Below, in pieces: positions 5,557-64,000 of a stretch of DNA of 64,000 nt. Source of the DNA: an uncultured Anaerolineales bacterium (lineage in GTDB: Bacteria > Chloroflexota > Anaerolineae > Anaerolineales > UBA11858); the NCBI GenBank assembly GCA_964560795.1, contig CAZLNX010000001.1, positions 227-64,226 of the forward strand, read 5' to 3'. Every line of letters begins with the position of its first letter. The first letter of the stretch is position 1. The translations under genes were made by a program, and so were the position numbers. The notes beneath the pieces were generated by a model. That model saw only the letters and a program-made list of their open reading frames with translations, was not told the origin of the DNA and made no database searches.

Positions 5557-5700
5557 GTACTACCTCCAATAAATTTTCACCAACACTGGTGCTACGCAGC
5601 ATAGATTTTGGATTTTATTGGTCAATTTTACTCCATTAAATACAGCAGGCCCAACCTGTATGAAATTGGACCTGCAAATTGATGAATCTCGCACCCGACG

Positions 5701-16013: not shown

Positions 16014-16868
16014 CTAGGCATCTTCTTTGGGTTTATGATCGCGCCAGTAGCTGATATAGCGGGTACCATAGGTATCGCGTCCCATCAGCAGATCGGTCGC
16101 CCGAATGGTGCTGGCCAGCTTGATGGGATCAGTGATAGCACAGGTAGCGCCCTCGCCCATCGCCAGCGACAAGAATGCCTGATTGACCGTGTGTCGGTCT
16201 GGCAGGCCAAAAGATACGTTGCTAGCTCCCAAGTTGATGTTGACTCCGAATTCCTTCTTCAATAATTGAACCGTTTGCAGCGTCACTGCGGCAGCATTGC
16301 TATCGGCGCCTACGGTGAGCACCAACGGATCGATGACGATATCTTCGATACCAATGCCCAGTTTAGCAGCTCGCTCGATGATCTTCTCAGCAATGGCGAC
16401 GCGCGTTTCGGCATCATTGGGAATACCATCATCGTCCATGGTCAGTCCTATCACCGAAACACCATGTTCACCGACCACAGGCAAGACAGCATTTAGTGAT
16501 TTCTCTTCGCCATTGACAGAGTTCACCAAAGGTTTTCCTGGAAGTACAGCCAAGGCTGCTGCTAAGGCCTCATGATTGGCAGAATCCAGGCACAGGGGTG
16601 TATCGACGGATTCAGCGACGATCTTAGCAACCTCGGGCAGCACGGCCACTTCGTCAAGGCCGGGCACGCCAACGTTGACATCCAGAATATCCGCCCCGGC
16701 TTCGACCTGTTTGATCGCTAAGCCACGGACATATTCATAGTCGCCTTCTTTTATCTTTCCGGCCAAGATCTTTCGTCCAGTAGGATTAATCTTCTCCCCG
16801 ATAATCACAAAGGGGGCATCATAACTGATGGTTACTTCTTGTTTCTCGCTTTTCAATATGGTTTTCAT
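16014..16868 (-). CDS. pterin-binding methyltransferase (methyl-corrinoid:tetrahydrofolate, MtgA/AcsE/MtrH-like)
   Basis: 284 aa TIM-barrel pterin-binding domain. Blocks IIGEKINPTG, GADILDVNVG, LCLDS, NSVNGE, GASNVSFGLP. Confidence 0.85.
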   Translation of the reverse strand: MKTILKSEKQEVTISYDAPFVIIGEKINPTGRKILAGKIKEGDYEYVRGLAIKQVEAGADILDVNVGVPGLDEVAVLPEVAKIVAESVDTPLCLDSANHEALAAALAVLPGKPLVNSVNGEEKSLNAVLPVVGEHGVSVIGLTMDDDGIPNDAETRVAIAEKIIERAAKLGIGIEDIVIDPLVLTVGADSNAAAVTLQTVQLLKKEFGVNINLGASNVSFGLPDRHTVNQAFLSLAMGEGATCAITDPIKLASTIRATDLLMGRDTYGTRYISYWRDHKPKEDA

Positions 16869-37049: not shown

Positions 37050-38426
37050 TCAACCTAATACATGATCTTCCGGAACGAGCTTTTCATAACGCTCCCAAAA
37101 AGAGGGGACAATCTCCCGGGACCTGGCCTTGATTTCATCTTCATCTAGGGTGGTTAAGATGCGATCTTTCATCAAAACCTGGCCGTTGACAATCGTGGTG
37201 GTGATCATGGATTCGTTGAAGCCAAAGACAAAGTGTCCAGCCAAGTTTTCGACCGTCATCGGCGTTGTCGGTTTGTAATCGACAAAAATCAGATCCGCTA
37301 AAGCCCCTGGCTCGATGACACCCACCCGGCCATCAGGGAAATAGGCTGAAGCCAGGGCAGCGTTGTTGTGTATCGCCATCTGCAGTAATTGATCGCCGGG
37401 CAAACGCCGGCTGTCGCGGTGTTTGATCTTCTGCAAGAGATAAGCAGCTTCTGCTTCGCGCCACATGGTATTCGTCAGGCCATCATTTCCCAGGCAAACG
37501 GGTATACCAGCCCGTAAATAGGATTCGACTTCGGCAATACCGTCAGCGGCATTCTGATTATTGCGCGGCTGATGGCTGACCCAAGAATTGCTCTCGGCAA
37601 TTAGCTGCACTTCGCGTGCATCCAGGTGAATGGCATGGGCCAGAATGGATTTATCCCCAAGAATACCGTGCTTCAGCAAACGATCCACAGAGCGTATCCC
37701 GGACATAGCCTGGCTGCGGACCTGGTCATATTCGTGTTCTGCCACATGCAGGTGGAATCCAGTTCCCTCGGGCACAGCCTCCCGGCAGGCAGCCAGGGTT
37801 TCTTCGGAAACCGTCATGGGCGCGTGAATGCCAAAATTGGCTGCCACACGTCCCTCAGAAATCTGATCCTGGTTGCAGCGGCGCACGAAACGGGCATTCT
37901 CAGCAATTCCAGCCTTGGCGCGTTCGGGGCCATCGCGGTCGGTGACTTCAAAACACAACACTGAGCGCAGTCCGGATTCGTCCATCGCTTCGGCAATCAC
38001 ATCCAAAACACCATCGATAAAGTTGGGGGAAGAATGATGATCGAACAAGGTGGTTGTACCGTGCTTGATAGCATCAATGGCTCCCACCAACGCGGAATAG
38101 CGCACATCTTCCTCGCTGAGCGCTTTATCAAAGGGCCACCATAACTTATGTAAGATAGTGGGCAACGTAATCGGCGCGTCACCCGGAACCGATATTCCGA
38201 CCGCGAATGCACTGTAATAATGACCATGAGCGTTGATATTTCCGGGCATCACATATTGGCCGCGGGCGTCCATCCATTCTTCACCCGAATATCGTTTGGC
38301 CAATTCCGTAGAGGGACCAATTTCAGTGATCATTCCATTGCGAATAAACACAGCCTGATTCTCTATAATCTGGTTAGGGGTTCCCCAGGTGATCAAGTGT
38401 GCATTCGTAATTAACATAACTATCAA
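37050..38426 (-). CDS. ssnA: amidohydrolase, SsnA-like putative aminohydrolase
   Basis: 458 aa. Blocks PGNINAHGHYYSAF, LWWPFDKALSEEDV, KHGTTTLFDHHSSP, CFEVTDRDG and HLHVAEHEYD follow the E. coli SsnA pattern as I recall it. Confidence 0.7.
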   Translation of the reverse strand: MIVMLITNAHLITWGTPNQIIENQAVFIRNGMITEIGPSTELAKRYSGEEWMDARGQYVMPGNINAHGHYYSAFAVGISVPGDAPITLPTILHKLWWPFDKALSEEDVRYSALVGAIDAIKHGTTTLFDHHSSPNFIDGVLDVIAEAMDESGLRSVLCFEVTDRDGPERAKAGIAENARFVRRCNQDQISEGRVAANFGIHAPMTVSEETLAACREAVPEGTGFHLHVAEHEYDQVRSQAMSGIRSVDRLLKHGILGDKSILAHAIHLDAREVQLIAESNSWVSHQPRNNQNAADGIAEVESYLRAGIPVCLGNDGLTNTMWREAEAAYLLQKIKHRDSRRLPGDQLLQMAIHNNAALASAYFPDGRVGVIEPGALADLIFVDYKPTTPMTVENLAGHFVFGFNESMITTTIVNGQVLMKDRILTTLDEDEIKARSREIVPSFWERYEKLVPEDHVLG

Positions 38427-38439: not shown

Positions 38440-39606
38440 CTAAACTTCTATCTGGCTCAATCGTTGGGCAATGCCCATGAATCCACTCACTGAACGCACC
38501 AGTTCAGGGATTTCAATATATTCATCGGTTACGTGAGCCACAAGGACAGAACCTGGCCCAAAAACAATTGTGGGGATACCCCGCTCTCCAGCACTGCCAG
38601 ACCCATTGGTGCAATAAGGTGTGCCATAGGTGATCGGGGGGATACCCGCCCCTTCTAAACCTTCCAGGCTGAGCCTGACCCAATCCGAATCAGGCTCTAC
38701 GGCCCAGGCGGGGTGGAAATCTTTTCGTGTAATGTGTACCCCCGTATAGCAATCAAACGAGAGCTCATCATAGTCAACATCCCAGCCTGTAAGATCATCG
38801 AGAGCCTTGCGATGGATCTCAAGCACTGTTTCGCGTGTCTCACCACGCACCATACGCCGATCAAAAATGACCTGGCACTCATAGGGTATAGTCGAGAAGC
38901 TCGGGTTTGGTTTGGAACTAATATGGATGGGTTCCATCACGCTGCGCCCCAATAGAGGATCTTCAACAAGGGGGATCTGGCGCACCCGGCGAATTACTTC
39001 AACAGCTTTCTCGATGGCATTCTCGCCGACTTCAGGTGAGGAGCTGTGGGCGGATTTCCCTTTGACAGAAAAGATCACCCGGCAGCGACCTTTGTGGCCA
39101 ATCCCAAGGCGACAGTCGGTCGGCTCTCCAATCACAACGCCATCGGGTTGGACGGCATCTAAGACACTTTCTAAAGCAGCACCTTCCAGAAGCTCTTCCC
39201 CAACTGTGCCCACTGCGTAAACTTCACCTGAGAATGAGTCGCGCTGCAAAGCCGCCAAAGCGATTGTAAAAGCAGCCAAGCTGCCCCGATCATCTGTTGA
39301 TCCGCGCCCCCAGAGCTTTCCATCAACGACTTCACCCCCAAAGGGATCATGAACCCAGGCATCTCGGTCACCCACCTCGACAGTATCCATATGGGCATCG
39401 AAGACAAGTTTGGGACCAGGTTTACTCCCCACGCGCCGGCCAATTACATTGCCAACTTCATCACGCCAGACATCATCGAAGCCCAAGGCGCGCATCTTGT
39501 TAAGGGCAACGTCAGCTACGGCTTCCAAATCGCCAGCCAGGCCGGGTGCCCGCACCAATTCCTGTAAGTATTCAACAACTTCGTTTTCGATGTCCATAGT
39601 AGGCAT
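38440..39606 (-). CDS. M20-family metallohydrolase (ArgE/DapE/YgeY-like)
   Basis: Blocks FDAHMDTV, GRGSTDDRG and GEE, plus a dimerisation-domain layout. Start trimmed to ATG 39606 (MPTMDIEN), after the upstream stop at 39612. Confidence 0.8.
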   Translation of the reverse strand: MPTMDIENEVVEYLQELVRAPGLAGDLEAVADVALNKMRALGFDDVWRDEVGNVIGRRVGSKPGPKLVFDAHMDTVEVGDRDAWVHDPFGGEVVDGKLWGRGSTDDRGSLAAFTIALAALQRDSFSGEVYAVGTVGEELLEGAALESVLDAVQPDGVVIGEPTDCRLGIGHKGRCRVIFSVKGKSAHSSSPEVGENAIEKAVEVIRRVRQIPLVEDPLLGRSVMEPIHISSKPNPSFSTIPYECQVIFDRRMVRGETRETVLEIHRKALDDLTGWDVDYDELSFDCYTGVHITRKDFHPAWAVEPDSDWVRLSLEGLEGAGIPPITYGTPYCTNGSGSAGERGIPTIVFGPGSVLVAHVTDEYIEIPELVRSVSGFMGIAQRLSQIEV

Positions 39607-39611
39607 AAAAT

Positions 39612-40631
39612 CTAAACGCCATCGGCAAAGGCATCGATGACGTCTCTGATATTGCCGCGCAGAGGATACAAAATCGGGCAAGTGACTCCAGCATCGATAT
39701 ACTCTTTGACCTTAGCGCGGCAATCTGCGGCAGTACCAACAGCCATGATGTCACGCACAATCTCCTCGGGGATCACGGCGCTGGCGCGCTCGTAATCTTC
39801 CTCGGTGGCGGGCCAGCCCATCAGGGCTTTGGCCTTGTCAGCGATCTCTTCGCTAACGCCGCTGGCCTTCATGATATGGGGCTCTGTGGCGAAATAGTAG
39901 GCGGCCAACTTTTTACCCGAGTGCAGGGCGGCATCCGGGTCTTCATCGGACATAGAGACCACCATCAATTCGGGCAGGTCGACATCTTTGATCGTCTTGC
40001 CCGCTTTCTGCGCACCTTTCTCCACCAGGGCAATGGCGCGTTTGACATAGTCAACGGAGACGCCGTAATTCAGGCAAACTCCATCACAAATCTCTCCAGC
40101 CAACTCAAGCATTTTCGGGCCGGTAGCGCCCAAGTAAATAGGAATATCGCGGGGTGACGTATCCCCATAAACCACATCCAGGCTGACGTTTTCCAGGTTG
40201 ACGAATTCGCCCTGATAGGTGATGGTCTCCATAGTCAGCAACTGACGCACAGCTTCGATATTTTCACGCATAGCCTTGAGAGGTTTGCTCATCTTCACAC
40301 CAACCCGGCTGGCGATAGGCTCCCACCAGGCACCCAGACCGAGCATCACCCGGCCACGGCCATCCACCTTGCCACCCAGTTCCCACATGGTGCTGAAACT
40401 GGCTGCAATCACTGCCGGATTCCGGGTCCAGATGGGCAATACACCTGACGCTACACGAAGGCGTTTGGTATGCGTAAGGAAAGCGCTCATCAAGACAATA
40501 CAATCCCTGGCCAGGCGGTTGTCGCCCTGCCAGATCTCACTGAAACCGCGCTCTTCCATATAGCGCGCCAGTTCTAGCTCTTCACGGATGTCAACCACAT
40601 CCTGCATGTAGATGGCCATTCGGTTAGTCAT
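39612..40631 (-). CDS. luciferase-like (LLM) flavin/F420-dependent oxidoreductase, Mer-like
   Basis: 339 aa TIM-barrel LLM pattern ([35 protein letters not shown]). Confidence 0.75.
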
Positions 40632-40758: not shown

Positions 40759-42150
40759 TCATAATGTCAGGCCCAATAAATCTTCCATCTCCTGGCAGAC
40801 TTCTTCGTACATTGCCTGCCACTCCGCTGTGGGTTGGAGGGACTCGACATCATAGGCTTCGGTGAAATGTTTACCTGCCATGGCGACACCCAGTTTTTGC
40901 GATTCAGCATAGAGAGGGGTCAGCTTCCTTACCAGAGGGTCAGCCTCGGCTCGTGTTAATCCTACGCTAGCACGCCCGACCTGGGCCAGGAATTTAGCTT
41001 CCAGGCCGGTGACATGCCCCTCGATGCGCCCGGCGGCGGATTGGACCCCTTCCAGGATCGAACAACCCGCCGGGACCGTAGCCACAGCCATAGCGGCAGC
41101 CTCATAGAGAAGTTCCTTGGTGACAGGTCCAGCGACCGGGCGCGGAAAGGAGGAAGTCAGCAATTTGGAGTTGCGGCTGATAGCCTGGAAACCCAGCGAC
41201 AAAGCCGGGATCATGGCGGGGAAGGTGCTGCAGCTGAGATGGGCATGGCTGGGACCGGGATTGAAGGTTGTCCCGTTGAGGGTGGCTTTCATCAAAATCA
41301 CACCAGCCACAATCGCAACGGCCAAACCATCTGCACCACCGACATATCCACCATAGATAGTGTTATAGAAATTGTGCGCAAATGCACCGGTATGCTGATA
41401 ATGCATCGCTTTGGTCAACTCGGCATAGGCGACTTTCAACTCAGAGATGAAGGAAGCATGATGCCAATCGGTGAGTCGGAAACCACCGTATGTACACGTA
41501 GCTAACTCGCCGATCTCTGATGGAGAATCTTCTGCACAGCCAATGGGCATCCCAGGGCGGCCAACCAGCTCAAGCACTTCGAAGGAGAGCTGCGCTTCTT
41601 GCCAACAGCCCACGGCTTCCCAGGGAGAGCCGGCTTTGATCGGCCGTCCATGTGTAGTGCTCAGGGTGGCGTTATCGATATAGTCAAGCACCCGCTCCTG
41701 AGCATAGCTGGCCATGATGGGGACAAATAATTCTTCAGGGACTGGGGTTCCATAGGGGCCACCGATGGTGGTTATGGGCGAATCCTGATCAGGAAGGCGA
41801 TGACGGATGGTGACACTATCATCGCCCAAACCGATGGTCTCCTCCTCTGGCGCCGTCGACAAGATCCAATCCAGCTCGTCCTGTGTCCACTTCATCTGGC
41901 GCTTGGTCTCCAGGCAATACACGCCCGTCTCGCGGGCCAGCTCCATTCCCGCTTCGAAAAGACGATCCGCTAAAGCGTCATCAGCGGGCACCATCGTTTC
42001 GGCATCCCATTGGATATCGTACTTCTGAATCAGACCTTTGATCGCCTGATGGATATACTTGAGATCCCAATCTTTCTCTTCCACCACAGGGCCATTTTCT
42101 GCTTTGTCCAGAACGGACAGCATGTATTGATAGGTTTCGCTAAGTTCCAT
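40759..42150 (-). CDS. MttB-superfamily methyltransferase paralog 5 (subfamily B)
   Basis: 463 aa. Blocks KAENGPVVEEKDWD, DDALADRLFEAG, TDWHHASFISELKVAY, TGLEAKFLAQVGRA. Confidence 0.85.
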   Translation of the reverse strand: MELSETYQYMLSVLDKAENGPVVEEKDWDLKYIHQAIKGLIQKYDIQWDAETMVPADDALADRLFEAGMELARETGVYCLETKRQMKWTQDELDWILSTAPEEETIGLGDDSVTIRHRLPDQDSPITTIGGPYGTPVPEELFVPIMASYAQERVLDYIDNATLSTTHGRPIKAGSPWEAVGCWQEAQLSFEVLELVGRPGMPIGCAEDSPSEIGELATCTYGGFRLTDWHHASFISELKVAYAELTKAMHYQHTGAFAHNFYNTIYGGYVGGADGLAVAIVAGVILMKATLNGTTFNPGPSHAHLSCSTFPAMIPALSLGFQAISRNSKLLTSSFPRPVAGPVTKELLYEAAAMAVATVPAGCSILEGVQSAAGRIEGHVTGLEAKFLAQVGRASVGLTRAEADPLVRKLTPLYAESQKLGVAMAGKHFTEAYDVESLQPTAEWQAMYEEVCQEMEDLLGLTL

Positions 42151-42185
42151 GAATATAACTCCTGATATTTTTGTCTTTATTATTT

Positions 42186-42302
42186 ACCGCGAAGACGCCA
42201 AGAGCGCTAAGATTGATCATTAGGGACAGATTCGGTAACGATTTAGTTGATTCTCTTTGCATTCCAAATATTATTTCTTCGCGAGCTTTGCGCCTTGGCG
42301 TT
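42186..42302. repeat. R2 palindromic element, copy d
   Basis: Left arm ACCGCGAAGACGCCAAGAGCGCTAAG (42186-42211). Right arm CTTCGCGAGCTTTGCGCCTTGGCGTT (42277-42302). The core between the arms is 65 nt and variable. Confidence 0.8.
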
Positions 42303-42315
42303 TCAATTACCGCCT

Positions 42316-43563
42316 TTACGCAGGTACCTGGGGAGAGAACTCAGTGCGCAATTCGTTCTGAACCAATATCTCGCCTTCCCGAATTACATACAGCCGCTCG
42401 GGTTTGCGGCGCAGGGCGTCTACGGCCGATGTGGCATTCAGCAAGATTAAATTGGCATCGGCGCCTACATGGACGCCGTAATCCTCCAGGCCGATATTAC
42501 GGGCGGCGTTATAGCGCGGCATATCGAAGGCCACCTGGATCTGATCGGGCGAGGTGAGATGCCCGGCGTGGGCGGCAATATTGGCGACTTCCAGGGGGTC
42601 CATTTGCCCAAAGGGGTAGAACATATTCATCAGGTCATCCTGCCCACAGCAGACGTTGACCCCGGCTTCGATCAGTTCAGCGATGCGCGCAATTCCGCGG
42701 CGCACAGGGATCTCATCAAGGCGTCCCTGCAGCAGCAGGTTGATGGGCGTATTGCTGACCACGGTGATATCGGCTTCTTTGACCTTGTCAATCACCCGGT
42801 TCAGGGTAGCCTTATCCCAGGCGGCCATGGAGGTACAGTGACCGGCGGTCACCCTGCCCTGGTAGCCTTCTTCGGTGGTCTTTTCGGCCAGCAGCTCTAG
42901 CGAGCGCCAATAGGGATCATCGGTCTCGTCTATATGCATATCGATATTGACATCCTTGGCCTTGGCGATCTCAAAGACGATCTCGATCTGCCGGGCGCCG
43001 TCTTCCATATTCTTCTCATGATGAGGAATCCCCCCTACCAACGTGGCACCGTTTTCCATGGCCTGCCACATCAGGTCAACCGATTCAGGATTGCGGGCCA
43101 GACCATGCTGGGGGAAAGCGATCAGTTGCAGGTCAAAAACATGTTTGAATTTCTCGCGAGCCGCGACGACAGCATAAAGTAGATCTAACTTGGCATACTG
43201 GTCGATATCGACATGGTTGCGCATCCACAAGGTGCCGTGGGCGATAGCTTCATGGATGGTCTGCGTGGCCCGTTGCAGGATATCCTCAGGGGTCAAATTG
43301 ACTTTGACCTCCGCATAAATGTCGATGGCCTCGCGCAGGGTGCCGCTCTGATTGAGATTATCTGTATCCCAAATCAGGGAATTTTCGATGTGGAAATGCG
43401 TCTCGATCAAAGCTGGGGAGATCATCGCCCCCTGTGCGTCAATGGATTTCTCCCCGGGTGAAATTTCATCCGAAGAAACCAGGATGATCTTTCCATCCTG
43501 TATGCCCACATGGACAATTTCAAGCGTTTTATCATGGAGTGCATTATGAAGGGTTAAATCCAT
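42316..43563 (-). CDS. amidohydrolase, cytosine deaminase (CodA)-like
   Basis: 415 aa. Blocks IETHFHIEN, GGIPHHE, NIDMHIDETDD, GHCTS. Paralog of 44465..45703. Confidence 0.8.
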   Translation of the reverse strand: MDLTLHNALHDKTLEIVHVGIQDGKIILVSSDEISPGEKSIDAQGAMISPALIETHFHIENSLIWDTDNLNQSGTLREAIDIYAEVKVNLTPEDILQRATQTIHEAIAHGTLWMRNHVDIDQYAKLDLLYAVVAAREKFKHVFDLQLIAFPQHGLARNPESVDLMWQAMENGATLVGGIPHHEKNMEDGARQIEIVFEIAKAKDVNIDMHIDETDDPYWRSLELLAEKTTEEGYQGRVTAGHCTSMAAWDKATLNRVIDKVKEADITVVSNTPINLLLQGRLDEIPVRRGIARIAELIEAGVNVCCGQDDLMNMFYPFGQMDPLEVANIAAHAGHLTSPDQIQVAFDMPRYNAARNIGLEDYGVHVGADANLILLNATSAVDALRRKPERLYVIREGEILVQNELRTEFSPQVPA

Positions 43564-44346: not shown

Positions 44347-44368
44347 AATTCACCTCTAGTTGTAAGTC

Positions 44369-44382
44369 GTCAAACGTTTGAC
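44369..44382. promoter_or_regulatory. perfect 14-bp palindrome GTCAAACGTTTGAC (candidate GntR operator, site 1)
   Basis: Lies within the 18-mer AGTCGTCAAACGTTTGAC (44365-44382), which is identical to 50854-50871. Sits 22 nt upstream of the GntR start codon. Confidence 0.7.
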
Positions 44383-44388
44383 AATATA

Positions 44389-44417
44389 AAAATATCAGGA
44401 TTCGTACAAAGAGTCAA
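44389..44417 (-). promoter_or_regulatory. candidate promoter P1 (TTGACT-17-TATTTT)
   Basis: Coding strand reads ATTTGACT, 17 nt, TATTTT, 6 nt, then the palindrome. The spacing is the same as at 50878..50906. Confidence 0.55.
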
Positions 44418-44464
44418 ATAATCTGACCCTTATGGGGAGAATTGTCACCTCCAACATGTGACAA

Positions 44465-45703
44465 TCAAGCCCAATGCAGTTTCTGTTCGACCCTATTTTC
44501 CGCTAGGATCCGCCCTCCCCTGACCACGTACCGGCGAGGGGGCTGCAGCCGCAGGGCATCCTGGGCGTTGTCGGCTTCGAAGAGGGTAAAGTCGGCTGGA
44601 TTCCCGATCTCAAGACCGTAATCTGACAATCTCAAAGCTCTCGCTGCCCGCCAGCGCGGCATATCAAAAGCCGTTTGGATTTCATCAGGAGTCGAGAGAT
44701 GGGCTGTCAGCGCCGTGACCAACGCCACCTCGAGCATATCCATGCGCCCAAAGGGGAAGAAGATATTCTTGACATCGTCGAGGCCGCAGGAGACATTGAC
44801 ACCCGTTTCCAACAATTCCTTAACGCGCGTGATACCGCGGCGCACAGGTTGGGCATCGCCGCGCCCCTGCAGGTACAGGTTGATCATCGGATTGGTAACC
44901 ACGGTGATTTCCGCCTCGGCGACCTTCTCGATGACGCGTTTTGCATAATCATCTGGATAGGCTGCCAGGGCACAGCAGTGTCCTGCGATCACCCGCCCCT
45001 GGTAGCCCTCGCGGATGGTGGTCTCAGCCAGCTGTTCCAGGGTTCGGGAGTCGGGATCGTCGGTCTCGTCGATGTGCATGTCGACATCGGCGTCGAACTC
45101 TTTGGCAATTTCGAAGGCGATGTCGATGTGTTCCTGGGCGTCAGCGCGGTTGGCCTCGGCATGGGGCATACCACCGACCACATCTGCACCCTGTCGCATG
45201 GATTCTCGCATCCAGGGCACGCTCTCGGGGTCGCGCACCAGACCCAGCTGCGGAAAGCAGACTATCTGCACATCGACTACACCGGCAAATTTTCCCTTCG
45301 CTTCAACGATGGGATACAGCAGCTTCAAACCAGAAACCGAGTCGACATCGACATGATTACGTATCCAACCGGTGCCATTTACCAACGCTTCGGTCAGCGC
45401 CCGGCAGGCTTTCGTGTAAATTTCTTTTGCGGGTCGGTCATCCTTGATGCGGGCGTTGATCTCGATGGCCTCATCGAGGGTGCCTGAATGATTAACATAT
45501 TCATCGAGATAAGCGCAATCGAGGTGGTGGTGTGGATCGATGAATAGCGGCGAGGCCAGCAATCCCGAGGCCTGGATATCGTTTTCAGGATTTGTCGGGG
45601 CTGGCAGGTCAGGCCCAATGGCCGCGATGACACCTGCCTGGACGCCAATATCCAGCGGTTTGTCGTGGCCTTCAATGAGTACATTGCGAAAGGCAAGATC
45701 CAT
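44465..45703 (-). CDS. amidohydrolase, cytosine deaminase (CodA)-like
   Basis: 412 aa. Blocks IDPHHHLDC, GGMPHAE, DVDMHIDETDD, GHCCA. Confidence 0.8.
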   Translation of the reverse strand: MDLAFRNVLIEGHDKPLDIGVQAGVIAAIGPDLPAPTNPENDIQASGLLASPLFIDPHHHLDCAYLDEYVNHSGTLDEAIEINARIKDDRPAKEIYTKACRALTEALVNGTGWIRNHVDVDSVSGLKLLYPIVEAKGKFAGVVDVQIVCFPQLGLVRDPESVPWMRESMRQGADVVGGMPHAEANRADAQEHIDIAFEIAKEFDADVDMHIDETDDPDSRTLEQLAETTIREGYQGRVIAGHCCALAAYPDDYAKRVIEKVAEAEITVVTNPMINLYLQGRGDAQPVRRGITRVKELLETGVNVSCGLDDVKNIFFPFGRMDMLEVALVTALTAHLSTPDEIQTAFDMPRWRAARALRLSDYGLEIGNPADFTLFEADNAQDALRLQPPRRYVVRGGRILAENRVEQKLHWA

Positions 45704-45753
45704 AGTTATTTGTCACTACAATAAATATCTAGTAACCAAAATGGGCAGATAAA

Positions 45754-45861
45754 ACCGCCAAGACACGAAGTTCGCGAAGACATATCATTTATGTCTGATG
45801 TTGATCTCAACATCAGGAGAATTTATTAAATATCTCTTTGCGCCCTTTGCGCCTTAGCGGT
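45754..45861. repeat. R2 palindromic element, copy e
   Basis: Left arm ACCGCCAAGACACGAAGTTCGCGAAG (45754-45779). Right arm CTTTGCGCCCTTTGCGCCTTAGCGGT (45836-45861). The core contains the hairpin CTGATGTTGA / TCAACATCAG. Confidence 0.8.
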
Positions 45862-45880
45862 AATAATCATATTTTCGAAA

Positions 45881-47269
45881 CTAAACCAATCTGTCCAAAG
45901 GAAGTCCGAGGTCGATCAGTTCTTGGCGAACTTCGTCGTACATGCCCTGCCATTCAGGCGTCGGCTCGACGTTATCGATGTCGTAGACCTCTTCGAAAGG
46001 CTTGCCGATGGGCTTCTTGTCCAGGTCATCCACGTAGAGCGGGATGATCTGCTTGACGATCTCGTCCGCTTCGGCACGGCTCATGCCGCGCACGGCTCGG
46101 GTGACCTCGCCACAGATCTTGGAGTCCAGACCGCTGGCGTGGCGGGGGATGCTGCCACCGGAAGCCGAGTGGCAGGAGGTCATCAGTGATTGACCGGAAA
46201 CGGTGGTCGCAGCGACGAAAGCCGCGTTCTCGTATAACATGGTCTTGGTGCCAGGCCCGCCAGCGGGACCTACCAGGGTATCCACCAACATGTTGGTATT
46301 GCGGGTCAGCCCTTGCACGCCCAGGGCAATTGCCCAGATCATCTCGGGGGTGGTGTCGCAGTTGTAGAAGGGATGATTGGGGCGGGTGTTATACGTATGC
46401 CCAGGATGACATTGGTTGAGCAGGATCAGGCCGCCAACTACAGCGATGGCAATGCCTTCACCGCCGCCCACGTACCCACCATAGATGGGGTTGTAATAGG
46501 CCTCGAGCAGGGTTCCCGTGCGCACAGAGTGGGTGACAATGGAGAGCATATCGTAGTTGGTCTTCAGCTCGCTCATGATGGGCGCGTGCAACCAATCGGT
46601 AGTACGATAACCACCATAGGATACGCCCGAAAGGCCGCCTAAAGCTGTGGCGGACAGTTCGACGCAACCCAGGCACATGCCGGGGCGTCCTGCAATTTCG
46701 GCTGCCTGAAGGGCCAGTTCGGCCTCGCGGCGAGCAGCCAGCACTTCCCAGGGTGAGCCGGCCTTGACCGGGTGCCCGTAGACAGACTCCAGCGAGGGGT
46801 TGTCGATAACGTCGATGACACCCTCTTTGAGATAGCTGAGGCTCATGGGGATGTACATGTACTCGGGAACAGGCACACCATAGGCCCCACCGGCCACCAC
46901 TACCCGCTCATCATCATCGGGCACGCGCGCCTTGCACACCACGGCGTCCGCCCCTGCCCCCATGACGATCTCCGATGGCACGTGGCGCAGCCCCTCCAGC
47001 AGTTCTTCTTTTGTCCAGACAATGCGGCGGCTGGTGTTCTGGCAGAACATACCTGCCTCTGTCGCCAGATCCAGGCCAGCCTGGAAGACGCGGTCGGCCA
47101 GGTCATCATCGCTGTTAACAATCACGGATTCGTCAAACTTGATATCGTAATCTTCGATCAGCTTTTTTACAGTGGGCGCGATCAATTTGCGCTCAAAGTC
47201 TTCCTCCTCCATGATCGGTCCTGTTTCCGCCCGGTGAAGAACCTCAACAATTCTTGCTCGGTGTCCCAT
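45881..47269 (-). CDS. MttB-superfamily methyltransferase paralog 6 (subfamily A)
   Basis: 462 aa. Blocks RAETGPIMEEEDFE, DDDLADRVFQAG, GPGTKTMLYE, SGLDSKICGEVTRA. Confidence 0.85.
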   Translation of the reverse strand: MGHRARIVEVLHRAETGPIMEEEDFERKLIAPTVKKLIEDYDIKFDESVIVNSDDDLADRVFQAGLDLATEAGMFCQNTSRRIVWTKEELLEGLRHVPSEIVMGAGADAVVCKARVPDDDERVVVAGGAYGVPVPEYMYIPMSLSYLKEGVIDVIDNPSLESVYGHPVKAGSPWEVLAARREAELALQAAEIAGRPGMCLGCVELSATALGGLSGVSYGGYRTTDWLHAPIMSELKTNYDMLSIVTHSVRTGTLLEAYYNPIYGGYVGGGEGIAIAVVGGLILLNQCHPGHTYNTRPNHPFYNCDTTPEMIWAIALGVQGLTRNTNMLVDTLVGPAGGPGTKTMLYENAAFVAATTVSGQSLMTSCHSASGGSIPRHASGLDSKICGEVTRAVRGMSRAEADEIVKQIIPLYVDDLDKKPIGKPFEEVYDIDNVEPTPEWQGMYDEVRQELIDLGLPLDRLV

Positions 47270-47326
47270 GACAAACTCTCCTTTCCAAATATTGGTTTTG
47301 GTCTTCTACTTCCTCTTAATGGCAAT

Positions 47327-48721
47327 TCAATCAAGTGGGATTCCTAATTCAATCATCTCTTGCCGCGCAACCTCATACACCGCTTGCCACTCGGCCGTCG
47401 GCTCGAGCGTTTCAAGGTCAAAGCACTCGTCAAAGGGTTGTCCTTTTTTGAGCAGATTTTGTTCATCCTTGAACATGCCGATCAGCTTGTTGACGATTGG
47501 GTGAGCCTCGGCGCGTCTCATACCGCTGGCAGCATGCGCTACTTCGGCGGCGAAACGGGCTTCGAGCGGCGAGCAGTGCCCTTCAAATCGGCCGGTGGCG
47601 GTCTGCACACCCTGTCCCAACCACACGCCAGATGTGACCGTGGCCAGTTGGTAGGCGGCAATTTCGTACAGCATGTCTATCTCTGTCGGGCCCGCAGCCG
47701 GGCGAGTAAAGTTGGCGATGCAAATATTGGAATTGCGCGAGAGCGCCTGCATAGCTACGGCTTGAGAGACGATAAGCGGGGGGAAGGTATTGAAACTGTG
47801 ATGTGCGTGACTGATGCCTGTATTGAAATAATCGCCAAAAAGCGTGGCCTTCATCAAGATGAAACCAGCCACGGTGGCGATGGCCGTACCTTCAACACCC
47901 CCAGCGAAACCACCAAAGATGGGGTTGTAGAAATTATGCACAAACGAATTGGTTTCAATAAAATGAGAGGTGCGGATAAGGTCTTCATAGGGCACTTTTA
48001 GCTCGCTCATAAACGAGGCGTTCTGCACATCAGTCCGGCGCATGCCCCCATAAGATTGCACACTGACAGTGCCGATTGCGGAAGCAGAAGTGTTCGGTGC
48101 ACAAACCGCCATCCCTGGGCGCCCGACATCTTCAATGGCCTGCATGGTCATGCGGACCTCATGCCAACAGCCAGCGGTATCCCAGGGTGATCCAGCCCGC
48201 ACCGGTCTACCGTGGACAGTCTTGAGCGCACCGGTGGTGAAATAGTTAAAAAGCGGTTCCTTGACATAGGCCTTGTTCAGGCGCAAGAAGTACTCCTCGG
48301 GGATCACCACCCCCCATGGCCCGCCGCCAAAAGGCACTTTTCCTGAAGAATCCGGGGTGCGTTTGTTAATCACAAAAGCATCTTCACCTGTCCCGGCAGT
48401 TAACGTATCAGGTATCCGGTCGAGCACGCCCTGGATTTCCTCTTCCGTCCAGATCATTCGGCGGCCGGTATCCGTGCAGTACACACCAGCATCCACGCAA
48501 AGCTGGATGGCAGCGGCAAACAAGCGGTCCGCCAGGTCATCATCATCTGGCACGCCTGGCTCGGCAACTGGAAAGCTTAGATCATATTTTTCAACCAACT
48601 CTTTGATCTTGGCATAGATATAGACGTTGTCCCATTCCTTAAGATCGATCATGGGGCCATTCTCGGCCTTGTCGAGTACAGCTAGGAACTCTTCGTGCGG
48701 AACTTTGGGCTCAAACGGCAT
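47327..48721 (-). CDS. MttB-superfamily methyltransferase paralog 7 (subfamily B)
   Basis: Start trimmed from 48757 to ATG 48721 (MPFEPKV), preceded by AAGGAG. This removes the overlap with paralog 8. Blocks KAENGPMIDLKEWD, SFMSELKVPY, SPLEARFAAEVAHA. Confidence 0.85.
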   Translation of the reverse strand: MPFEPKVPHEEFLAVLDKAENGPMIDLKEWDNVYIYAKIKELVEKYDLSFPVAEPGVPDDDDLADRLFAAAIQLCVDAGVYCTDTGRRMIWTEEEIQGVLDRIPDTLTAGTGEDAFVINKRTPDSSGKVPFGGGPWGVVIPEEYFLRLNKAYVKEPLFNYFTTGALKTVHGRPVRAGSPWDTAGCWHEVRMTMQAIEDVGRPGMAVCAPNTSASAIGTVSVQSYGGMRRTDVQNASFMSELKVPYEDLIRTSHFIETNSFVHNFYNPIFGGFAGGVEGTAIATVAGFILMKATLFGDYFNTGISHAHHSFNTFPPLIVSQAVAMQALSRNSNICIANFTRPAAGPTEIDMLYEIAAYQLATVTSGVWLGQGVQTATGRFEGHCSPLEARFAAEVAHAASGMRRAEAHPIVNKLIGMFKDEQNLLKKGQPFDECFDLETLEPTAEWQAVYEVARQEMIELGIPLD

Positions 48722-48734
48722 ACTTGTATCTCCT

Positions 48735-50126
48735 TTAATTCTGTCCAAATTGATCAAGCGGCATCCCCATGGCGATCAACTCACCCCTGACCTCATCGTA
48801 GATTCCCTGCCATTCGGCAGTCGGCTCCACGGTTTCAATATCGTAAACTTGTTCAAAGGGTTTTCCGATGGGTTTTTTCTCTAAATCAGATTGATAGAGT
48901 GGCACGATTTGAGTGAGCAGCTCGTTGGCATGTTCACGCGTCAACCCTGGCATCGTTCGAGCAACCTCGGCACAAATCCGGGCATCAAGACCGCTGCCAT
49001 GACGCGGTACAGCCCCTCCAGCAGAGTGGCTAGCCAGCAGTTCAGACACCCCTGAAGCCATTGACATCAATGCGAATGCAGCGTTTTCATAGACAATGGT
49101 CTTGGTTCCTGGCCCACCAGCTGGACCAGCCAGCGTAGCGATCATCAGATCACTATTGCGGGTTAATGCCTGTACGCCCAGGCTTGTGGCCCACAAGATT
49201 TCCGGTGTGGTGTCGCAGCCATAAAATGGATGGGTAGGACGAGTGCAAAAAGTATGGCCAATAGAAATCTGATTGAGTAAGATCATCCCCGCCGCCACGG
49301 CAATTGCAGTGCCTTCGGCCCCTCCAACATGGCCTCCATAGATTGGGTTGTAATAAGCCCCGATAAATCCATTCAAATTATGGATGTGAGTAATGATGGC
49401 CAGCAAATCGTTGTTGGTTTTGAATTCACTGGTGGTTGCAACATGGTGGCGGTCAAAGGTGCGATAGCCACCCCAGGTAACCCCGGCCAATCCGCCCAGC
49501 GCCGTCGGAGCCAATTCGACAGCGGAAAATGGGGTTCCCATCTTTCCAACAAGGGATAGTGCTTCCTGGGCCAATTCGGCTTTCCTCCAGGCCCCTAATA
49601 CTTCCCAACCTGTACCAGCCTTTATGGGATAGCCATAGGCCGTTTCAAGAGAAACGCTATCAATAGAATCAAAAATTCCCTGCTTGAGAAAACTCAATGT
49701 CAGGGGAAGATGCAAATCTTCTGGGAAAGGTATACCAACTACGCCTCCCAGGAGCGCAACGCGCTGTGAATCCTCGGGCATGCGGGCAACAACAGTGAAC
49801 TGTTCGTCCCTCTCTCCTAGTGAGGCCTGATTATGGCAAGTTTGTATGGCTTCTTCAATTTCATCACGAGTCCAGGTGATGCGACGGCTGGTGCTCTGAT
49901 TGAACATCCCAACTTCACTGGCAAAATCTACTCCGGCTTGGAACACCCGATCAGCAAGATCGTCGTCGGAATTGACATAGGATTCACCCGTATACTGAAT
50001 ATCGTATTTTTCGACCAGACGTTTGATCGTTGGTCCCACCAGCTTACGCTCAAAATCGACCTCGTCCATGATAGGCCCAGACTCAGAGCGCTCGAGGACT
50101 TCGAAAAGCCTAGGATGCTGCTTCAT
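48735..50126 (-). CDS. MttB-superfamily methyltransferase paralog 8 (subfamily A)
   Basis: Start trimmed from 50279 to ATG 50126 (MKQHPRLFEVLERSESGP), preceded by AAGGAG and lying downstream of the corrinoid gene stop at 50152. Confidence 0.85.
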   Translation of the reverse strand: MKQHPRLFEVLERSESGPIMDEVDFERKLVGPTIKRLVEKYDIQYTGESYVNSDDDLADRVFQAGVDFASEVGMFNQSTSRRITWTRDEIEEAIQTCHNQASLGERDEQFTVVARMPEDSQRVALLGGVVGIPFPEDLHLPLTLSFLKQGIFDSIDSVSLETAYGYPIKAGTGWEVLGAWRKAELAQEALSLVGKMGTPFSAVELAPTALGGLAGVTWGGYRTFDRHHVATTSEFKTNNDLLAIITHIHNLNGFIGAYYNPIYGGHVGGAEGTAIAVAAGMILLNQISIGHTFCTRPTHPFYGCDTTPEILWATSLGVQALTRNSDLMIATLAGPAGGPGTKTIVYENAAFALMSMASGVSELLASHSAGGAVPRHGSGLDARICAEVARTMPGLTREHANELLTQIVPLYQSDLEKKPIGKPFEQVYDIETVEPTAEWQGIYDEVRGELIAMGMPLDQFGQN

Positions 50127-50151
50127 TGCTAGTCTCCTTTTATTGTTCCGA

Positions 50152-50829
50152 CTACGCAGGTCGATCCAGCAATGCCAGGCATTTCTCCACAGCTTCGACA
50201 GCATCCTTGCCAAAGGCATCGGCGCCAATTTCAGCGGTGTATTCGGCCGTGATCGGTGCTCCACCGACGATGACGACAAAATCGTTCTTTAGGCCAAAGC
50301 CATCCCGGAGTTCGACACATTCCTTCATGTAGGGCATCGAGGTGGTCATCAAGGATGATAAGCCGACAATATCAGCGCCCACTTCTTTGGCCTTATCAAG
50401 CATATCGCGCGGCGGCACATCAACACCCATATCGAAGACTTCGAAGCCGTTCACCCGCAGCATCAGCACGACCATGTTCTTGCCAATATCATGCAGATCA
50501 CCCTTGACTGAGCCGATAACGATCTTGCCCCGGATCACTTCTTGATCCGAATCGGAGGCCGCCAACATAGGCTGTACCACCTGATCGCTGATAGCCTGGG
50601 CGCGGTCTGCGGCATCCATCAATTCAGGCAAAAAGATCTCCATGCGACCAAATTTGTCACCGACTGCTGCCATAGCGGGAGTAAAGATCATATTGAAGAA
50701 ATCCGTGACACCGATATCACCAGCCAAAGTTTCTTTGGCCCAATCCAGACCGGCATCCGGTTCATCTCCTAATAACAATTCCATGAGTTCTTTCTGCAGT
50801 GCTTTAAAATCAGACATAGGGACCTCCAA
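50152..50829 (-). CDS. corrinoid (B12-binding) methyl-carrier protein 3
   Basis: 225 aa with GDLHDIGKNMV, SSLMTT and IVGGA. The start may instead be ATG 50817. Confidence 0.9.
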   Translation of the reverse strand: MEVPMSDFKALQKELMELLLGDEPDAGLDWAKETLAGDIGVTDFFNMIFTPAMAAVGDKFGRMEIFLPELMDAADRAQAISDQVVQPMLAASDSDQEVIRGKIVIGSVKGDLHDIGKNMVVLMLRVNGFEVFDMGVDVPPRDMLDKAKEVGADIVGLSSLMTTSMPYMKECVELRDGFGLKNDFVVIVGGAPITAEYTAEIGADAFGKDAVEAVEKCLALLDRPA

Positions 50830-50857
50830 GGCATATTCGCGGAATTAGTTGTCAGTC

Positions 50858-50871
50858 GTCAAACGTTTGAC
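50858..50871. promoter_or_regulatory. perfect 14-bp palindrome GTCAAACGTTTGAC (candidate GntR operator, site 2)
   Basis: Lies within AGTCGTCAAACGTTTGAC (50854-50871), identical to site 1. Sits 28 nt upstream of the corrinoid protein ORF. Confidence 0.7.
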
Positions 50872-50877
50872 GTTTAG

Positions 50878-50906
50878 AGATTAGCATATTTTTTCACAAA
50901 AGTCAA
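50878..50906 (-). promoter_or_regulatory. candidate promoter P2 (TTGACT-17-TAATCT)
   Basis: Coding strand reads ATTTGACT, 17 nt, TAATCT, 6 nt, then the palindrome. The geometry equals that of P1. Confidence 0.55.
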
Positions 50907-50933: not shown

Positions 50934-51039
50934 GTCATCCTGAGCGGAGCGAAGGATCTGAATCGTATTTTTTTGAGAGATTCTTCGCCCCTCGCCGTAG
51001 GCGGACCTTGCCGTAGGCACGTCTTAGACAGGCCATGAC
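50934..51039. repeat. R3 REP-like palindromic element, copy f
   Basis: GTCATCCTGAGCGGAGCGAAGGATCT ... AGATTCTTCGCC ... GGCCATGAC. The right half carries a direct duplication of GCCGTAGGC. Confidence 0.75.
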
Positions 51040-52471: not shown

Positions 52472-52583
52472 GTCACTCTGAGCTTCATCCGGAGCAAAGT
52501 CGAAGGAAAAGCGAAGAGTCTCCCGCCCTCCGGGCGGAGATTCTTCACTTCGTTCACGTCAAAGGCGGGCCTATAGCCATGAC
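52472..52583. repeat. R3 REP-like palindromic element, copy g
   Basis: GTCACTCTGAGC ... GCGAAGAGTCTCCCGCCCTCCGGGCGGAGATTCTTCAC ... GCCATGAC. Confidence 0.7.
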
Positions 52584-53880: not shown

Positions 53881-53974
53881 GTAATTCTGAGCCGCCAGGG
53901 GCGCGCCTGCGGCGAGCGAAGAATCTGAGATGCTGCTAACCTAGATTCTTCGCCCCAATGGGGCTCAGAATGAC
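53881..53974. repeat. R3 REP-like palindromic element, copy h
   Basis: GTAATTCTGAGCC ... GAGCGAAGAATCT - loop - AGATTCTTCGCCCCAATGGGGCTCAGAATGAC. Confidence 0.8.
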
Positions 53975-58985: not shown

Positions 58986-59744
58986 TCATAATATCCGCCG
59001 TATAGTTTCATATTTACTTGCAACTCCAAATAAATGCTCCAGGGAGTGAAATACGGGCTTCCCATCGCTGGTGAATCCTACATCCTCGATGACCAACACA
59101 GGGGTATTCAGTGCATAATCTGAAAACTCTTCTGGCAGATTGCAGCTCTCAACGGTTTGGGGATAAAGGCATGATGTCAAATGATCTATCGGTGTATTAC
59201 ATTTTTGCCTGAAAAATTGAAAGAATGGCTCGGTAATTCCTGGTTGGGTAATTTGATCCTGGGAAAAATAATTTTCGAATACCCAAAGGGGGATATGGTT
59301 GATGATGTAAATGATGGGTTTGTTGTCGGCCGTCCAGATTTTCTTGATCTGCAGAGACTTTCCACCCTTTTCGATCTCCAGCTTTTCGGTGATCCCGGCA
59401 TCCGTATTGACGATATCTGCCCCCAACTGCTCAAAACCCGACTCGAATCCCTGCATGGCAATGCGGTCATCGAAATCGATCATCTGAAAAAGCGGGTTCG
59501 CAATACTGAGCTGCTTGCTGACAAAGGTGCCAATGCCCTGGCGGCGTTGGATCAATTTGCGCTCTTCGAGCTTGGCATAGGCGCTGCGCAGCGTGGCCCT
59601 GCTGACATTGAACTCTTCAATTAACTCATTTTCAGTGGGGAGCTGGCTTCCTGGATGATAGACACCTTCCTTGATCCGATCAATGAGAATTCGCAGCACT
59701 TGATCGGCAAGGGAAGGTTGACGGACCAGTTTTAACTCATCCAT
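58986..59744 (-). CDS. GntR-family transcriptional regulator (HutC-like)
   Basis: Start trimmed to ATG 59744 (MDELKLVRQPSLADQV). Winged helix LPTENELIEEFNVSRATLRSA plus a UTRA-like C-terminal domain. Confidence 0.85.
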   Translation of the reverse strand: MDELKLVRQPSLADQVLRILIDRIKEGVYHPGSQLPTENELIEEFNVSRATLRSAYAKLEERKLIQRRQGIGTFVSKQLSIANPLFQMIDFDDRIAMQGFESGFEQLGADIVNTDAGITEKLEIEKGGKSLQIKKIWTADNKPIIYIINHIPLWVFENYFSQDQITQPGITEPFFQFFRQKCNTPIDHLTSCLYPQTVESCNLPEEFSDYALNTPVLVIEDVGFTSDGKPVFHSLEHLFGVASKYETIRRIL

Positions 59745-59812
59745 GGTACAGGATCCTTTCGGGACACTTTGAAACCAGGTCGAGCACGCGCACGTTGAAA
59801 CATCATTCGTCA

Positions 59813-59839
59813 ATCATCAGTTGGTAGCCATCTGATGAT
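59813..59839. promoter_or_regulatory. inverted repeat ATCATCAG-N11-CTGATGAT (candidate operator)
   Basis: Perfect 8-bp arms. The spacer TTGGTAGCCAT contains the half-palindrome TGG...CCA. Starts 3 nt downstream of the -10 element of the promoter at 59843..59871. Confidence 0.5.
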
Positions 59840-63647: not shown

Positions 63648-64000
63648 TCAGGTCAGTTCGATCCCGAATTGCGCTTCAATTTCCTTACAAACGTTGTCGT
63701 ACTCTTGGTACCATTTGTTCGTGGGCTGAAGCGTGTCTAGGTCATAGAGCTCTGGAAAGGGTTGACCAACCAACCCCTCACTCTGAATATGCCTATATTT
63801 TTCTACCAACCAGGTAACAATTGGATCGGCGTCTTTACGTGTCATTCCTTCTGCGGCATGGGCGAGCTCACCGCAGAAACGCGCTTCCAGGGGTGTTGCA
63901 TGCATTTGATTGTTGCCCGTTGCAGATTGGACACAATCGATCAGCGCCGCGCCCGATACAACCGCGGCTAAGGTCAACGCGCCGCTCTCGTAGAAAATCT
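63648..64000 (-). CDS. MttB-superfamily methyltransferase paralog 12, C-terminal part (partial, runs off right edge)
   Basis: The frame stays open to position 64000 (IFYESGALTLAAVVSGAALIDCVQSATG ... TPLEARFCGELAHAAEGM). Aligns with the C-terminal third of subfamily B paralogs. Confidence 0.85.
   Translation of the reverse strand, partial: IFYESGALTLAAVVSGAALIDCVQSATGNNQMHATPLEARFCGELAHAAEGMTRKDADPIVTWLVEKYRHIQSEGLVGQPFPELYDLDTLQPTNKWYQEYDNVCKEIEAQFGIELT

Follow-up and report, generated by a model that had tools for sequence, protein, structure and literature searches.

Does a short sequence that stands twice in front of different genes in one stretch of bacterial DNA mark a common regulatory system, and if so, which protein would bind it and which genes would it control? 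This question was raised by a stretch of 64,000 nucleotides (nt), in the following called the window, from an uncultured bacterium of the Anaerolineales (contig CAZLNX010000001.1, assembly GCA_964560795.1). The 18-nt sequence AGTCGTCAAACGTTTGAC is found upstream of the gene for a GntR-family regulator, which is followed by a gene for a CodA-like amidohydrolase, and again upstream of a gene for a corrinoid protein, which is followed by three methyltransferase genes. A first-pass annotation had proposed that both copies belong to one small regulon. A computational analysis led to the view that the element is, judged from sequence comparison, almost certainly a functional operator, and that the two sites are quite probably the operators of an autoregulated repressor of the HutC type, encoded by the adjacent GntR gene, which would cover approximately positions +1 to +27 at both promoters. 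The coordinates of all predicted features are compiled in Table 1.

The two exact copies are located at positions 44365-44382 and 50854-50871, and both an exact count and mismatch scans of the window agreed with the earlier claim that the 18-mer does not occur elsewhere. When up to three mismatches were allowed, 4 matches of AGTCGTCAAACGTTTGAC were obtained, compared with 0.05 expected from shuffled sequences, and 0 of 100 shuffles reached 4; apart from the two exact copies, these matches were only the two palindromes read again on the reverse strand. The 14-nt palindrome contained in the repeat, GTCAAACGTTTGAC, had no further match in the window with up to two mismatches. With three mismatches, matches were found at 14568, 18172, 19713 and 47429, a number that is not above chance. 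The window contains three exact repeats of at least 18 nt, and because two of them are situated inside paralogous coding genes, AGTCGTCAAACGTTTGAC is the sole intergenic one. Matrices for the complete element, for its core and for its third box, which are described below, were also run against the window and did not yield any additional site with 12 bits or more.

Both copies are embedded in the same predicted promoter layout, and re-reading of the coding strand showed that its earlier description (TTGACT, 17 nt, TAnnnT, 6 nt, palindrome) was right at both sites. Promoter 1 has an extended -10 box, TGaTATTTT, and a consensus scan gave 9 of 12 matches with the TG present; the extended -10 box of promoter 2, TGcTAATCT, was read directly and aligned to site 1 and to the orthologues. 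At both promoters the TG lies one base ahead of the -10 box and the palindrome begins 6 nt past it, i.e., at about +1. The predicted -35 box, the spacing and the -10 box were retained across orthologues. The distance of 22 nt between operator 1 and the GntR start codon and the distance of 18 nt between the GntR and amidohydrolase genes had also been given correctly. The distance of 28 nt that had been given for site 2 presumes a TTG start codon at 50829 and had to be revised. The ATG codon at 50817 is the likely start, because it is preceded by GGAGG and because the orthologues align from residue 1; therefore, palindrome 2 is located 40 nt upstream of the corrinoid gene. The designation of the two promoters as paralogous was likewise not borne out, as outside the functional boxes their likeness was no better than background (7 of 17 positions identical in the spacer, 1 of 6 in the discriminator).

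For the comparative analysis, the regulator protein served as the query in scans of genome and metagenome collections, and the loci obtained are labelled L001 etc. These scans gave about a dozen orthologous loci with 58-80% identity, the closest genomes being those of uncultured Anaerolineales. A protein search yielded 148 relatives of the regulator with E-values of 1e-40 or lower, which fall into a group A with at least 62% identity and a group B with 43-54% identity, and more gene contexts from both groups were added to the comparison.

On the coding strand the block common to both sites of the window reads GTCAAACGTTTGACGACT[T/G]ACAACTA, and 25 of its 26 positions are identical. The conserved element comprises about 27 nt, TTGTCAAACGTwTGAC GACTGACAAC, and the consensus including the relatives is (T)TGTCAAACGTwTGAy G(A/T)CTGACAAC. 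It is composed of three units of 7 nt in phase, GTCAAAC, GTwTGAC and G(A/T)CTGAC (GACTGAC in the window), the first of which is inverted relative to the second and the third. Units 1 and 2 form the palindrome, and unit 3 is an extra half-site. Accordingly built, operator 1 contains the 14-nt palindrome at 44369-44382 and the third heptad within the box GACTTACAAC, while the palindrome of operator 2 is perfect across 16 nt (50857-50872). The perfect palindrome of the window turned out to be a special case, and most of the relatives contain the imperfect version GTCAAACGTATGAC; the palindrome consensus over the orthologues is GTCAwACGTwTGAy. Thus, the proposed 18-nt operator with a perfect palindrome was correct with respect to the presence of the palindrome, and its extent and perfection had to be corrected to an element of about 27 nt and three heptads that is imperfect in most relatives. 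The loci L051/L131 have retained the palindrome alone, and for this reason the palindrome was regarded as the core, with the third unit in an auxiliary role. The palindrome begins with GT and ends with AC, as is required for an operator of the GntR family, and each of the 7-nt units on its own reads GT-N3-AC. An additional half-site box, which is an optional feature of GntR operators, is also present, at an offset of 7 nt and with the sequence G(A/T)CTGAC in group A.

The position of the element in the different genomes was then informative. In the window and in L001, L003, L048, L049, L050 and L051/L052/L131 it immediately precedes the regulator gene. In L001 it also precedes the corrinoid gene, at the same place as operator 2 of the window. 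In L002/L054 and L132 the element heads an array with the order EamA-corrinoid-MtmB-...-GntR-amidohydrolase-MtmB. L134 and L136 contain the element in inverted orientation, and here the half with TTGACA makes up the -35 box of a promoter (TTGACA-17-TATGAT/TATTAT) that is directed toward the regulator gene.

A footprint of 8 independent group-A sites revealed a clear island of conservation. The mean pairwise identity was 0.86 for the palindrome and 0.91 for the following 11-nt box, compared with 0.57 for the -35 hexamer, 0.48 for the -10 hexamer and 0.29-0.34 for the far upstream region, the spacer and the downstream region. A 30-nt matrix was made from nine of the same group-A sites, and the scores of 39-49 bits for the strong sites are thus partly circular. 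Sites outside the matrix reached 39.0 bits (L132), 35.8 bits (L134) and 34.6 bits (L136), and the palindrome-only site of L051 reached 19.7 bits, while the top match in 1.2 Mb of unrelated loci had 16.2 bits.

The same core was present in the paralogous clade. The group-B regulators of L137 and L138 (47-49% identity) have a core palindrome upstream of their genes; in L137 (9908-9956) GTCAAACGTTTGAC occurs twice, 31 bp apart, and in L138 (9944-9964) a TTGACA-17-TATATT promoter is followed after 6 nt by three tandem heptads, GTCAAAC GTTTGAC GTTTGAC. The group-B clade heads its own operons with GntR, CodA-like, corrinoid, MtmB and Bmp/ABC genes. L137 and L003 share one genome, and one may ask how the two regulators avoid cross-talk there. 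The orthologue and the paralogue are also encoded together on the 313-kb contig CAZUMA010000001.1.

These results bear on a trivial explanation of the repeat, namely that the two copies are identical by chance or because a promoter segment was recently duplicated, and that they have no function. Duplication is common in the window, which contains many paralogous genes. The two promoters are at background identity outside the -35 box and the operator, however, and the element is conserved where the flanks have fallen to about 30% identity and is found in the paralogous clade as well. On the basis of the flank identities and the exact-repeat count this explanation was rejected, and it is regarded as the least probable of all that were considered. 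By contrast, the proposal of a shared regulon gained support, as far as sequence can provide it, from the conserved island in otherwise diverged promoters, from its varying position, in front of the regulator gene in some genomes and of the structural operon in others, and from the occurrence of the same core in the paralogous clade.

It was also considered that the block might act in the RNA, as an element of the 5' leader that influences stability or translation or senses a ligand. It would be located at the extreme 5' end of both transcripts, and the palindrome can form a short hairpin. Nevertheless, four leaders folded no better than shuffled sequences (z -0.4 to -1.25), an Rfam scan of the whole window yielded no match, and the RNA element was rejected. 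Furthermore, the imperfect palindrome GTCAAACGTATGAC of most orthologues would result in a weaker hairpin, without a compensatory change, and in L134 and L136 the inverted element lies over the -35 box and thus outside of the transcript. A function in RNA is therefore judged to be very unlikely.

The protein proposed to bind the element is a GntR regulator of 254 amino acids with two clearly recognizable domains, the GntR domain PF00392 (E 9.7e-24, 83.2 bits with a cut-off of 27, residues 16-79, full model length) and the UTRA effector domain PF07702 (E 8.8e-18, 64.9 bits with a cut-off of 23.8, residues 114-242). The regulator did not fall into any named orthologous group such as PhnF, HutC, TreR, PhnR or NagR; all NCBIfam equivalogs tried stayed far below their cut-offs, with PhnF as the best (89.6 of 156.8 bits), followed by HutC (85.9 of 220 bits) and TreR (63.6 of 212 bits). 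The closest solved structures are 2RA5 and NagR/YvoA, and the protein also resembles DasR; NagR/YvoA and DasR, the closest relatives by structure match, are annotated as repressors. The recognition helix has the sequence GISRSTLREAL in 13 of 14 aligned orthologues and in the three group-B paralogues that were compared. The variant DISRSTLREAL was read in four sequences, one of which entered two comparisons, so that it belongs to the three remaining orthologues.

A repressor was proposed because the site starts 6 nt after the -10 box (or lies over the -35 box in two genomes), because the promoters look strong and because the closest solved relatives are annotated as repressors. Alternatively, the regulator bound to the element could activate transcription or have a dual function. 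The operator does not have a fixed position, as it is found at +1 in one set of genomes and over the -35 box in another, and a TTGTCA inverted repeat about 78 bp from the centre of operator 1 could mean that the architecture is more complex. Against activation, the positions downstream of -10 and over -35 are both classic repressor positions, NagR/YvoA and DasR are annotated as repressors, and the promoters should not need activation because they have good -35 and extended -10 boxes. Activation or dual regulation was consequently given a low probability, and simple repression is preferred.

The upstream inverted repeat deserves a description of its own. It is a perfect 8-nt repeat, ATTGTCAC-N9-GTGACAAT, at 44441..44465, about 25 nt upstream of the -35 box of promoter 1. 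It overlaps the last base (44465) of the stop codon of the amidohydrolase gene located upstream, and it shares the TTGTCA motif with the operator. In L001 the arms are conserved and the spacer is variable, and the repeat is absent from L003, L049 and L050. Its function could be that of an auxiliary operator, or it could form a hairpin in the RNA at the end of the upstream operon. A similar arrangement, GTGACAA-tacc-TTGTCAC, was observed upstream of the regulator gene in L056/L135.

Several points weigh against the assignment of the element to the adjacent GntR regulator. The loci were gathered via regulator homology, and the co-occurrence of site and regulator is thus partly built in. On the side of the source genome, the site scan covered the window, which is essentially the whole source contig (64,463 bp, a JGI metagenome contig). 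The orthologues of L056/L135, L057, L058 and L133 (62-65% identity) have no such site in the sequence at hand, and their winged helix is the same except for one residue; in these loci a second GntR gene, which has a different inverted repeat, is the first gene of the operon. A search upstream of the regulator gene was negative in L053, L055, L056, L057 and L058, with the contig of L053 stopping before the expected position and the upstream sequence of L055 being that of L132, whose site is upstream of EamA. Moreover, the GT and the AC of the palindrome are 10 nt apart with ACGT in the centre, which differs from the GT-N4-AC geometry of the HutC subfamily. The central 10 bp of the palindrome, CAAACGTTTG, are the same as the core of the PurR/Cra boxes of the LacI family.

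The last points lead to the reading that the element is a true operator, but of another factor, either a LacI-family protein similar to PurR or Cra and encoded elsewhere in the genome or the second GntR/UTRA regulator encoded in the window (58986-59813). Besides the core sequence of the PurR/Cra type, the gene content of the region can be cited for this reading, as it resembles a catabolism of N-heterocycles or of the purine type (xanthine-dehydrogenase-family enzymes, SsnA, YgeY and a Bmp-type transporter). However, no LacI-family gene was present among the scanned or recorded open reading frames of the window (8560-9828, 10796-11677 and 2790-4094 were covered via precomputed Pfam records only, and other plus-strand frames were left out) or within 10 kb on either side in L131-L138. 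The central CpG, which is needed by the hinge helices of LacI-type proteins, is kept in most sites and is lost in L048 (TG) and L049 (CA). The third direct heptad is foreign to LacI-type operators, the outer positions also differ from those of PurR/Cra operators, and the site is tightly associated with the main regulator gene.

The recognition helix of the second GntR regulator is similar to, and its wing is identical with, that of the main regulator, and the element at the promoter of the second GntR gene in L133 agrees with the operator at 18 of 27 positions (ungapped comparison), although it reached only 13 bits with the 30-nt matrix. Yet this gene has its own distinct inverted repeat, CATCAGaTGG-CT-aCCAaCTGATG, after its own TTGACA-17-TATAGT promoter, and in L051/L131, which contain the site, no homologue of the second GntR was seen within 10 kb. 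Because of the different inverted repeat at its own promoter, the second GntR was kept as a minor rival only. Taken together, another factor is considered to be improbable, albeit less so than activation, and the adjacent GntR regulator remains the favoured candidate.

The inverted repeat of the second regulator, CATCAGATGG-CT-ACCAACTGATG, is situated at 59815-59837, upstream of its gene, and occurs once in the window. It probably serves the second regulator as its operator. Related elements, TGTCwGTCAACTrAyGTATAAA, were found after a TATAAT box upstream of the second-GntR orthologues in L056/L135 and L133.

For the adjacent GntR regulator the following mechanism is proposed. When the inducer is absent, a dimer would occupy the operator region and block transcription, perhaps with a second dimer or an extra subunit on the third unit. 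At site 1 the blocked unit would comprise the genes for GntR, a CodA-like amidohydrolase and an MtmB-like methyltransferase, and possibly more genes; at site 2 it would comprise the genes for the corrinoid protein, three MtmB-like methyltransferases and a second CodA-like amidohydrolase. A small molecule bound in the UTRA domain, most likely the pathway substrate or an early intermediate, would release the regulator from both sites. The identity of the binder, the repression, the stoichiometry, the effector and the extents of the operons were inferred. The regulatory design itself is ordinary, i.e., an autoregulated repressor of the GntR type with operators at two promoters.

This design has clear counterparts. 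Like NagR/YvoA of Bacillus subtilis and DasR of Streptomyces, the protein consists of a GntR winged helix and a UTRA domain with significant similarity to the structures, its gene lies inside the presumed catabolic target cluster, and a palindrome of about 14-16 bp is found at the promoter. In contrast to these systems, the presumed targets (corrinoid protein, non-pyrrolysine MtmB and CodA-like proteins) are unrelated to the use of amino sugars, and the operator sequence is different. Operators of the GntR family are palindromes of the form NyGTNxACNy at the promoter of the regulated operon, with GTMTAKAC, and thus GT-N4-AC, being typical for HutC (PMC4494728). The GT...AC form that the first-pass annotation had named for the operators of GntR repressors is present at the two ends of the palindrome, while the distance of 10 nt instead of the usual 4 is not that of HutC operators (PMC4494728).

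An additional half-site box has been reported for the orthologous groups of FadR, HutC and YtrA and was proposed to bind extra subunits (Suvorova, Korostelev and Gelfand, 2015; PMC4494728). The extra box described here is likewise oriented as one half-site of the palindrome, but unlike in those boxes its conservation is not below that of the palindrome (0.91 versus 0.86), and it stands in a strict 7-nt phase. The survey of 2015 did not contain a regulon of the HutC subfamily from Chloroflexi (PMC4494728).

Table 1. Predicted features around the two operators (positions refer to the window)
Feature	Position	Strand	Characteristics
Predicted sigma-70-type promoter 1, of the GntR operon	44389..44417	-	-35 TTGACT 44417-44412, 17-nt spacer, -10 TATTTT 44394-44389
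Predicted operator 1	44357..44384	-	coding strand TTGTCAAACGTTTGAC GACTTACAACTA; 22 nt upstream of GntR start codon
GntR-family regulator, HutC subfamily, 254 amino acids	43582..44346	-	winged helix-turn-helix and UTRA effector domain (Pfam)
CodA/AtzC-like amidohydrolase, 18 nt behind the GntR gene	42316..43563	-	Pfam Amidohydro_3/1
Non-pyrrolysine MtmB-family methyltransferase	40759..42150	-	Pfam MtmB 2.1e-93
Predicted promoter 2, of the corrinoid/MtmB operon	50878..50906	-	-35 TTGACT 50906-50901, 17-nt spacer, -10 TAATCT 50883-50878
Predicted operator 2	50846..50873	-	coding strand ACGTCAAACGTTTGAC GACTGACAACTA; 40 nt upstream of likely ATG 50817
Corrinoid (B12-binding) protein, first gene after operator 2	50152..50817	-	Pfam B12-binding and B12-binding_2
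Three tandem non-pyrrolysine MtmB-family genes	48735-50126, 47327-48721, 45881-47269	-	Pfam MtmB 2.7e-79, 6.6e-95, 2.9e-93
CodA-like amidohydrolase closing the corrinoid/MtmB array	44465..45703	-	Pfam; NCBIfam cytosine deaminase subfamily 342 bits, below cut-off

The genes behind the two promoters were analyzed with respect to family and order. The methyltransferases of the window had been described as MttB paralogues, and this naming had to be abandoned. All of them match Pfam MtmB (PF05369) over the full length with E-values from 1e-67 to 1e-100, no match to the MttB family model was found, and MtmB was the sole family at E-values of up to 1e-3 (up to 1e-5 for part of the open reading frames). 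The paralogue at 45881 matches MtmB of M. barkeri (1L2Q) with 1.6e-66. In this paralogue, the only one that was checked, a glycine in GMCLGCVELS aligns with the pyrrolysine X of GMGVXGPETS. The MtmB open reading frames are all uninterrupted and contain no in-frame UAG, and they are thus referred to as non-pyrrolysine MtmB proteins.

In the operon of the regulator, the amidohydrolase reached 393 bits with the NCBIfam cytosine deaminase subfamily, which is below the cut-off of 438, and its matches in the PDB include CodA (1K6W, 1.6e-79) and AtzC (about 1e-52). The MtmB gene that follows probably belongs to this operon; the gap in front of it is 165 nt in the window (42151-42315) and 34-90 nt in the relatives. 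Further downstream are genes for an F420/LLM-type oxidoreductase, an M20 hydrolase of the YgeY type and SsnA.

Behind operator 2, NCBIfam models for methyltransferase-cognate corrinoid proteins match the corrinoid protein below their cut-offs. The starts of the three tandem MtmB genes were re-assigned to ATG codons that follow AAGGAG. The CodA-like amidohydrolase gene that closes the array was not mentioned in the first-pass annotation, and its stop codon is 47 nt upstream of the -35 box of promoter 1. The gap between the last MtmB gene and this gene is 177 nt (45704-45880), compared with 13 nt in L003. Within the gap, at 45794-45817, a 10-bp inverted repeat, CCTGATGTTGA-GA-TCAACATCAGA, was observed, which is not followed by a run of T residues; it may be another regulatory site or a hairpin for processing or termination.

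The gene order turned out to be highly conserved. A CodA-like amidohydrolase gene follows the GntR gene in 18/18 orthologous loci that extend past the regulator, and an MtmB gene is next after the pair in 15/15 orthologous loci that reach that far; in a 16th locus, L136, a cut, unannotated gene occupies the MtmB position. In the group-B loci L137 and L138 a corrinoid gene is inserted between the amidohydrolase and the MtmB gene, and in the group-B locus P0080 the amidohydrolase gene is upstream of the regulator gene instead. The shared operator had previously been regarded as independent support for a functional link between methyltransferases and a deaminase. Such a link is indeed indicated by this gene order and by the CodA-like gene in the corrinoid operon, and the operator is a weaker support for it than the gene order.

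Both operons are part of a larger island. On the minus strand between 16000 and 64000, the window contains 12 complete non-pyrrolysine MtmB paralogues and a 13th one that is cut at the window end (63648-63977). The island also encodes at least four corrinoid proteins, a pterin-binding methyl carrier (16014-16868), a methyl carrier of the URO-D type (29331-30563), three enzymes of the xanthine-dehydrogenase family, several more amidohydrolases, a Bmp-type ABC transporter and the second GntR/UTRA regulator. SsnA (37050-38426) and YgeY (38440-39681) both exceeded their NCBIfam cut-offs. This gene content suggests an anaerobic demethylation and breakdown of methylated N-heterocycles.

Two further observations concern the surroundings. 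Three intergenic GC-rich hairpins at 50948-50989, 52510-52549 and 53915-53954 share GGCGAAGAATCT ... AGATTCTTCGC, with one of them a short distance ahead of promoter 2. The hairpins have the appearance of a small family of repeats similar to repetitive extragenic palindromic elements or of terminator-like insulators between transcription units. The first part of the window (1-5600) encodes a response regulator and histidine kinase pair, a protein with a guanylate/adenylate cyclase domain, an XdhC-type maturation factor and a small deaminase of the cytidine/deoxycytidylate type, and these genes adjoin one gene of the xanthine-dehydrogenase family.

MtqB of the MtqB/MtqC system of Methanococcoides methylutens, an enzyme for tetramethylammonium/choline, is the sole non-pyrrolysine MtmB homologue with a demonstrated function, compared with about a thousand others without one (PMC13044021, 2026). 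The methyltransferases of the window resemble this system in that they belong to PF05369, do not contain pyrrolysine (the 45881 paralogue was checked) and have a corrinoid gene of the cognate type beside them. They differ from it in the bacterial host and in the large number of paralogues within 64 kb. In addition, CodA/AtzC-like amidohydrolases, xanthine-dehydrogenase-family enzymes and a Bmp-type transporter are encoded nearby, and nothing points to tetramethylammonium or choline. A literature search found no paper on the palindrome, on MtmB together with a cytosine deaminase, on anaerobic demethylation of methylxanthines or on a monomethylamine methyltransferase in Anaerolineae, and a preprint on the mlp gene cluster does not mention these components (PMC10418091).

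It is tempting to speculate that the operator marks an undescribed module of the Anaerolineales for the anaerobic, corrinoid-dependent removal of N-methyl groups from methylated N-heterocycles, such as nucleobases or similar compounds, but this is a tentative view and rather doubtful at present. The module may consist of the HutC-type GntR regulator, a CodA/AtzC-like amidohydrolase, the corrinoid protein, non-pyrrolysine MtmB proteins and the Bmp-type ABC transporter, and it may be set among the xanthine-dehydrogenase-family enzymes, SsnA, YgeY and the pterin-binding and URO-D-type methyl carriers. The methyl groups may be transferred to tetrahydrofolate, the ring may then be deaminated and oxidized, and the effector of the regulator may be the substrate itself.

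With regard to regulation, the set of sites adds a HutC-type motif from the Chloroflexota and a clean example of a three-heptad operator. The value of the finding lies in the regulated genes, as one clade of regulators is tied to MtmB-family methyltransferases, their corrinoid partner and hydrolases similar to cytosine deaminase and AtzC. The regulator thus offers a practical handle for finding the substrate of an orphan methyltransferase family, and, if the proposed N-methyl module is real, it would open the first route to the physiological substrate of the bacterial non-pyrrolysine MtmB proteins.

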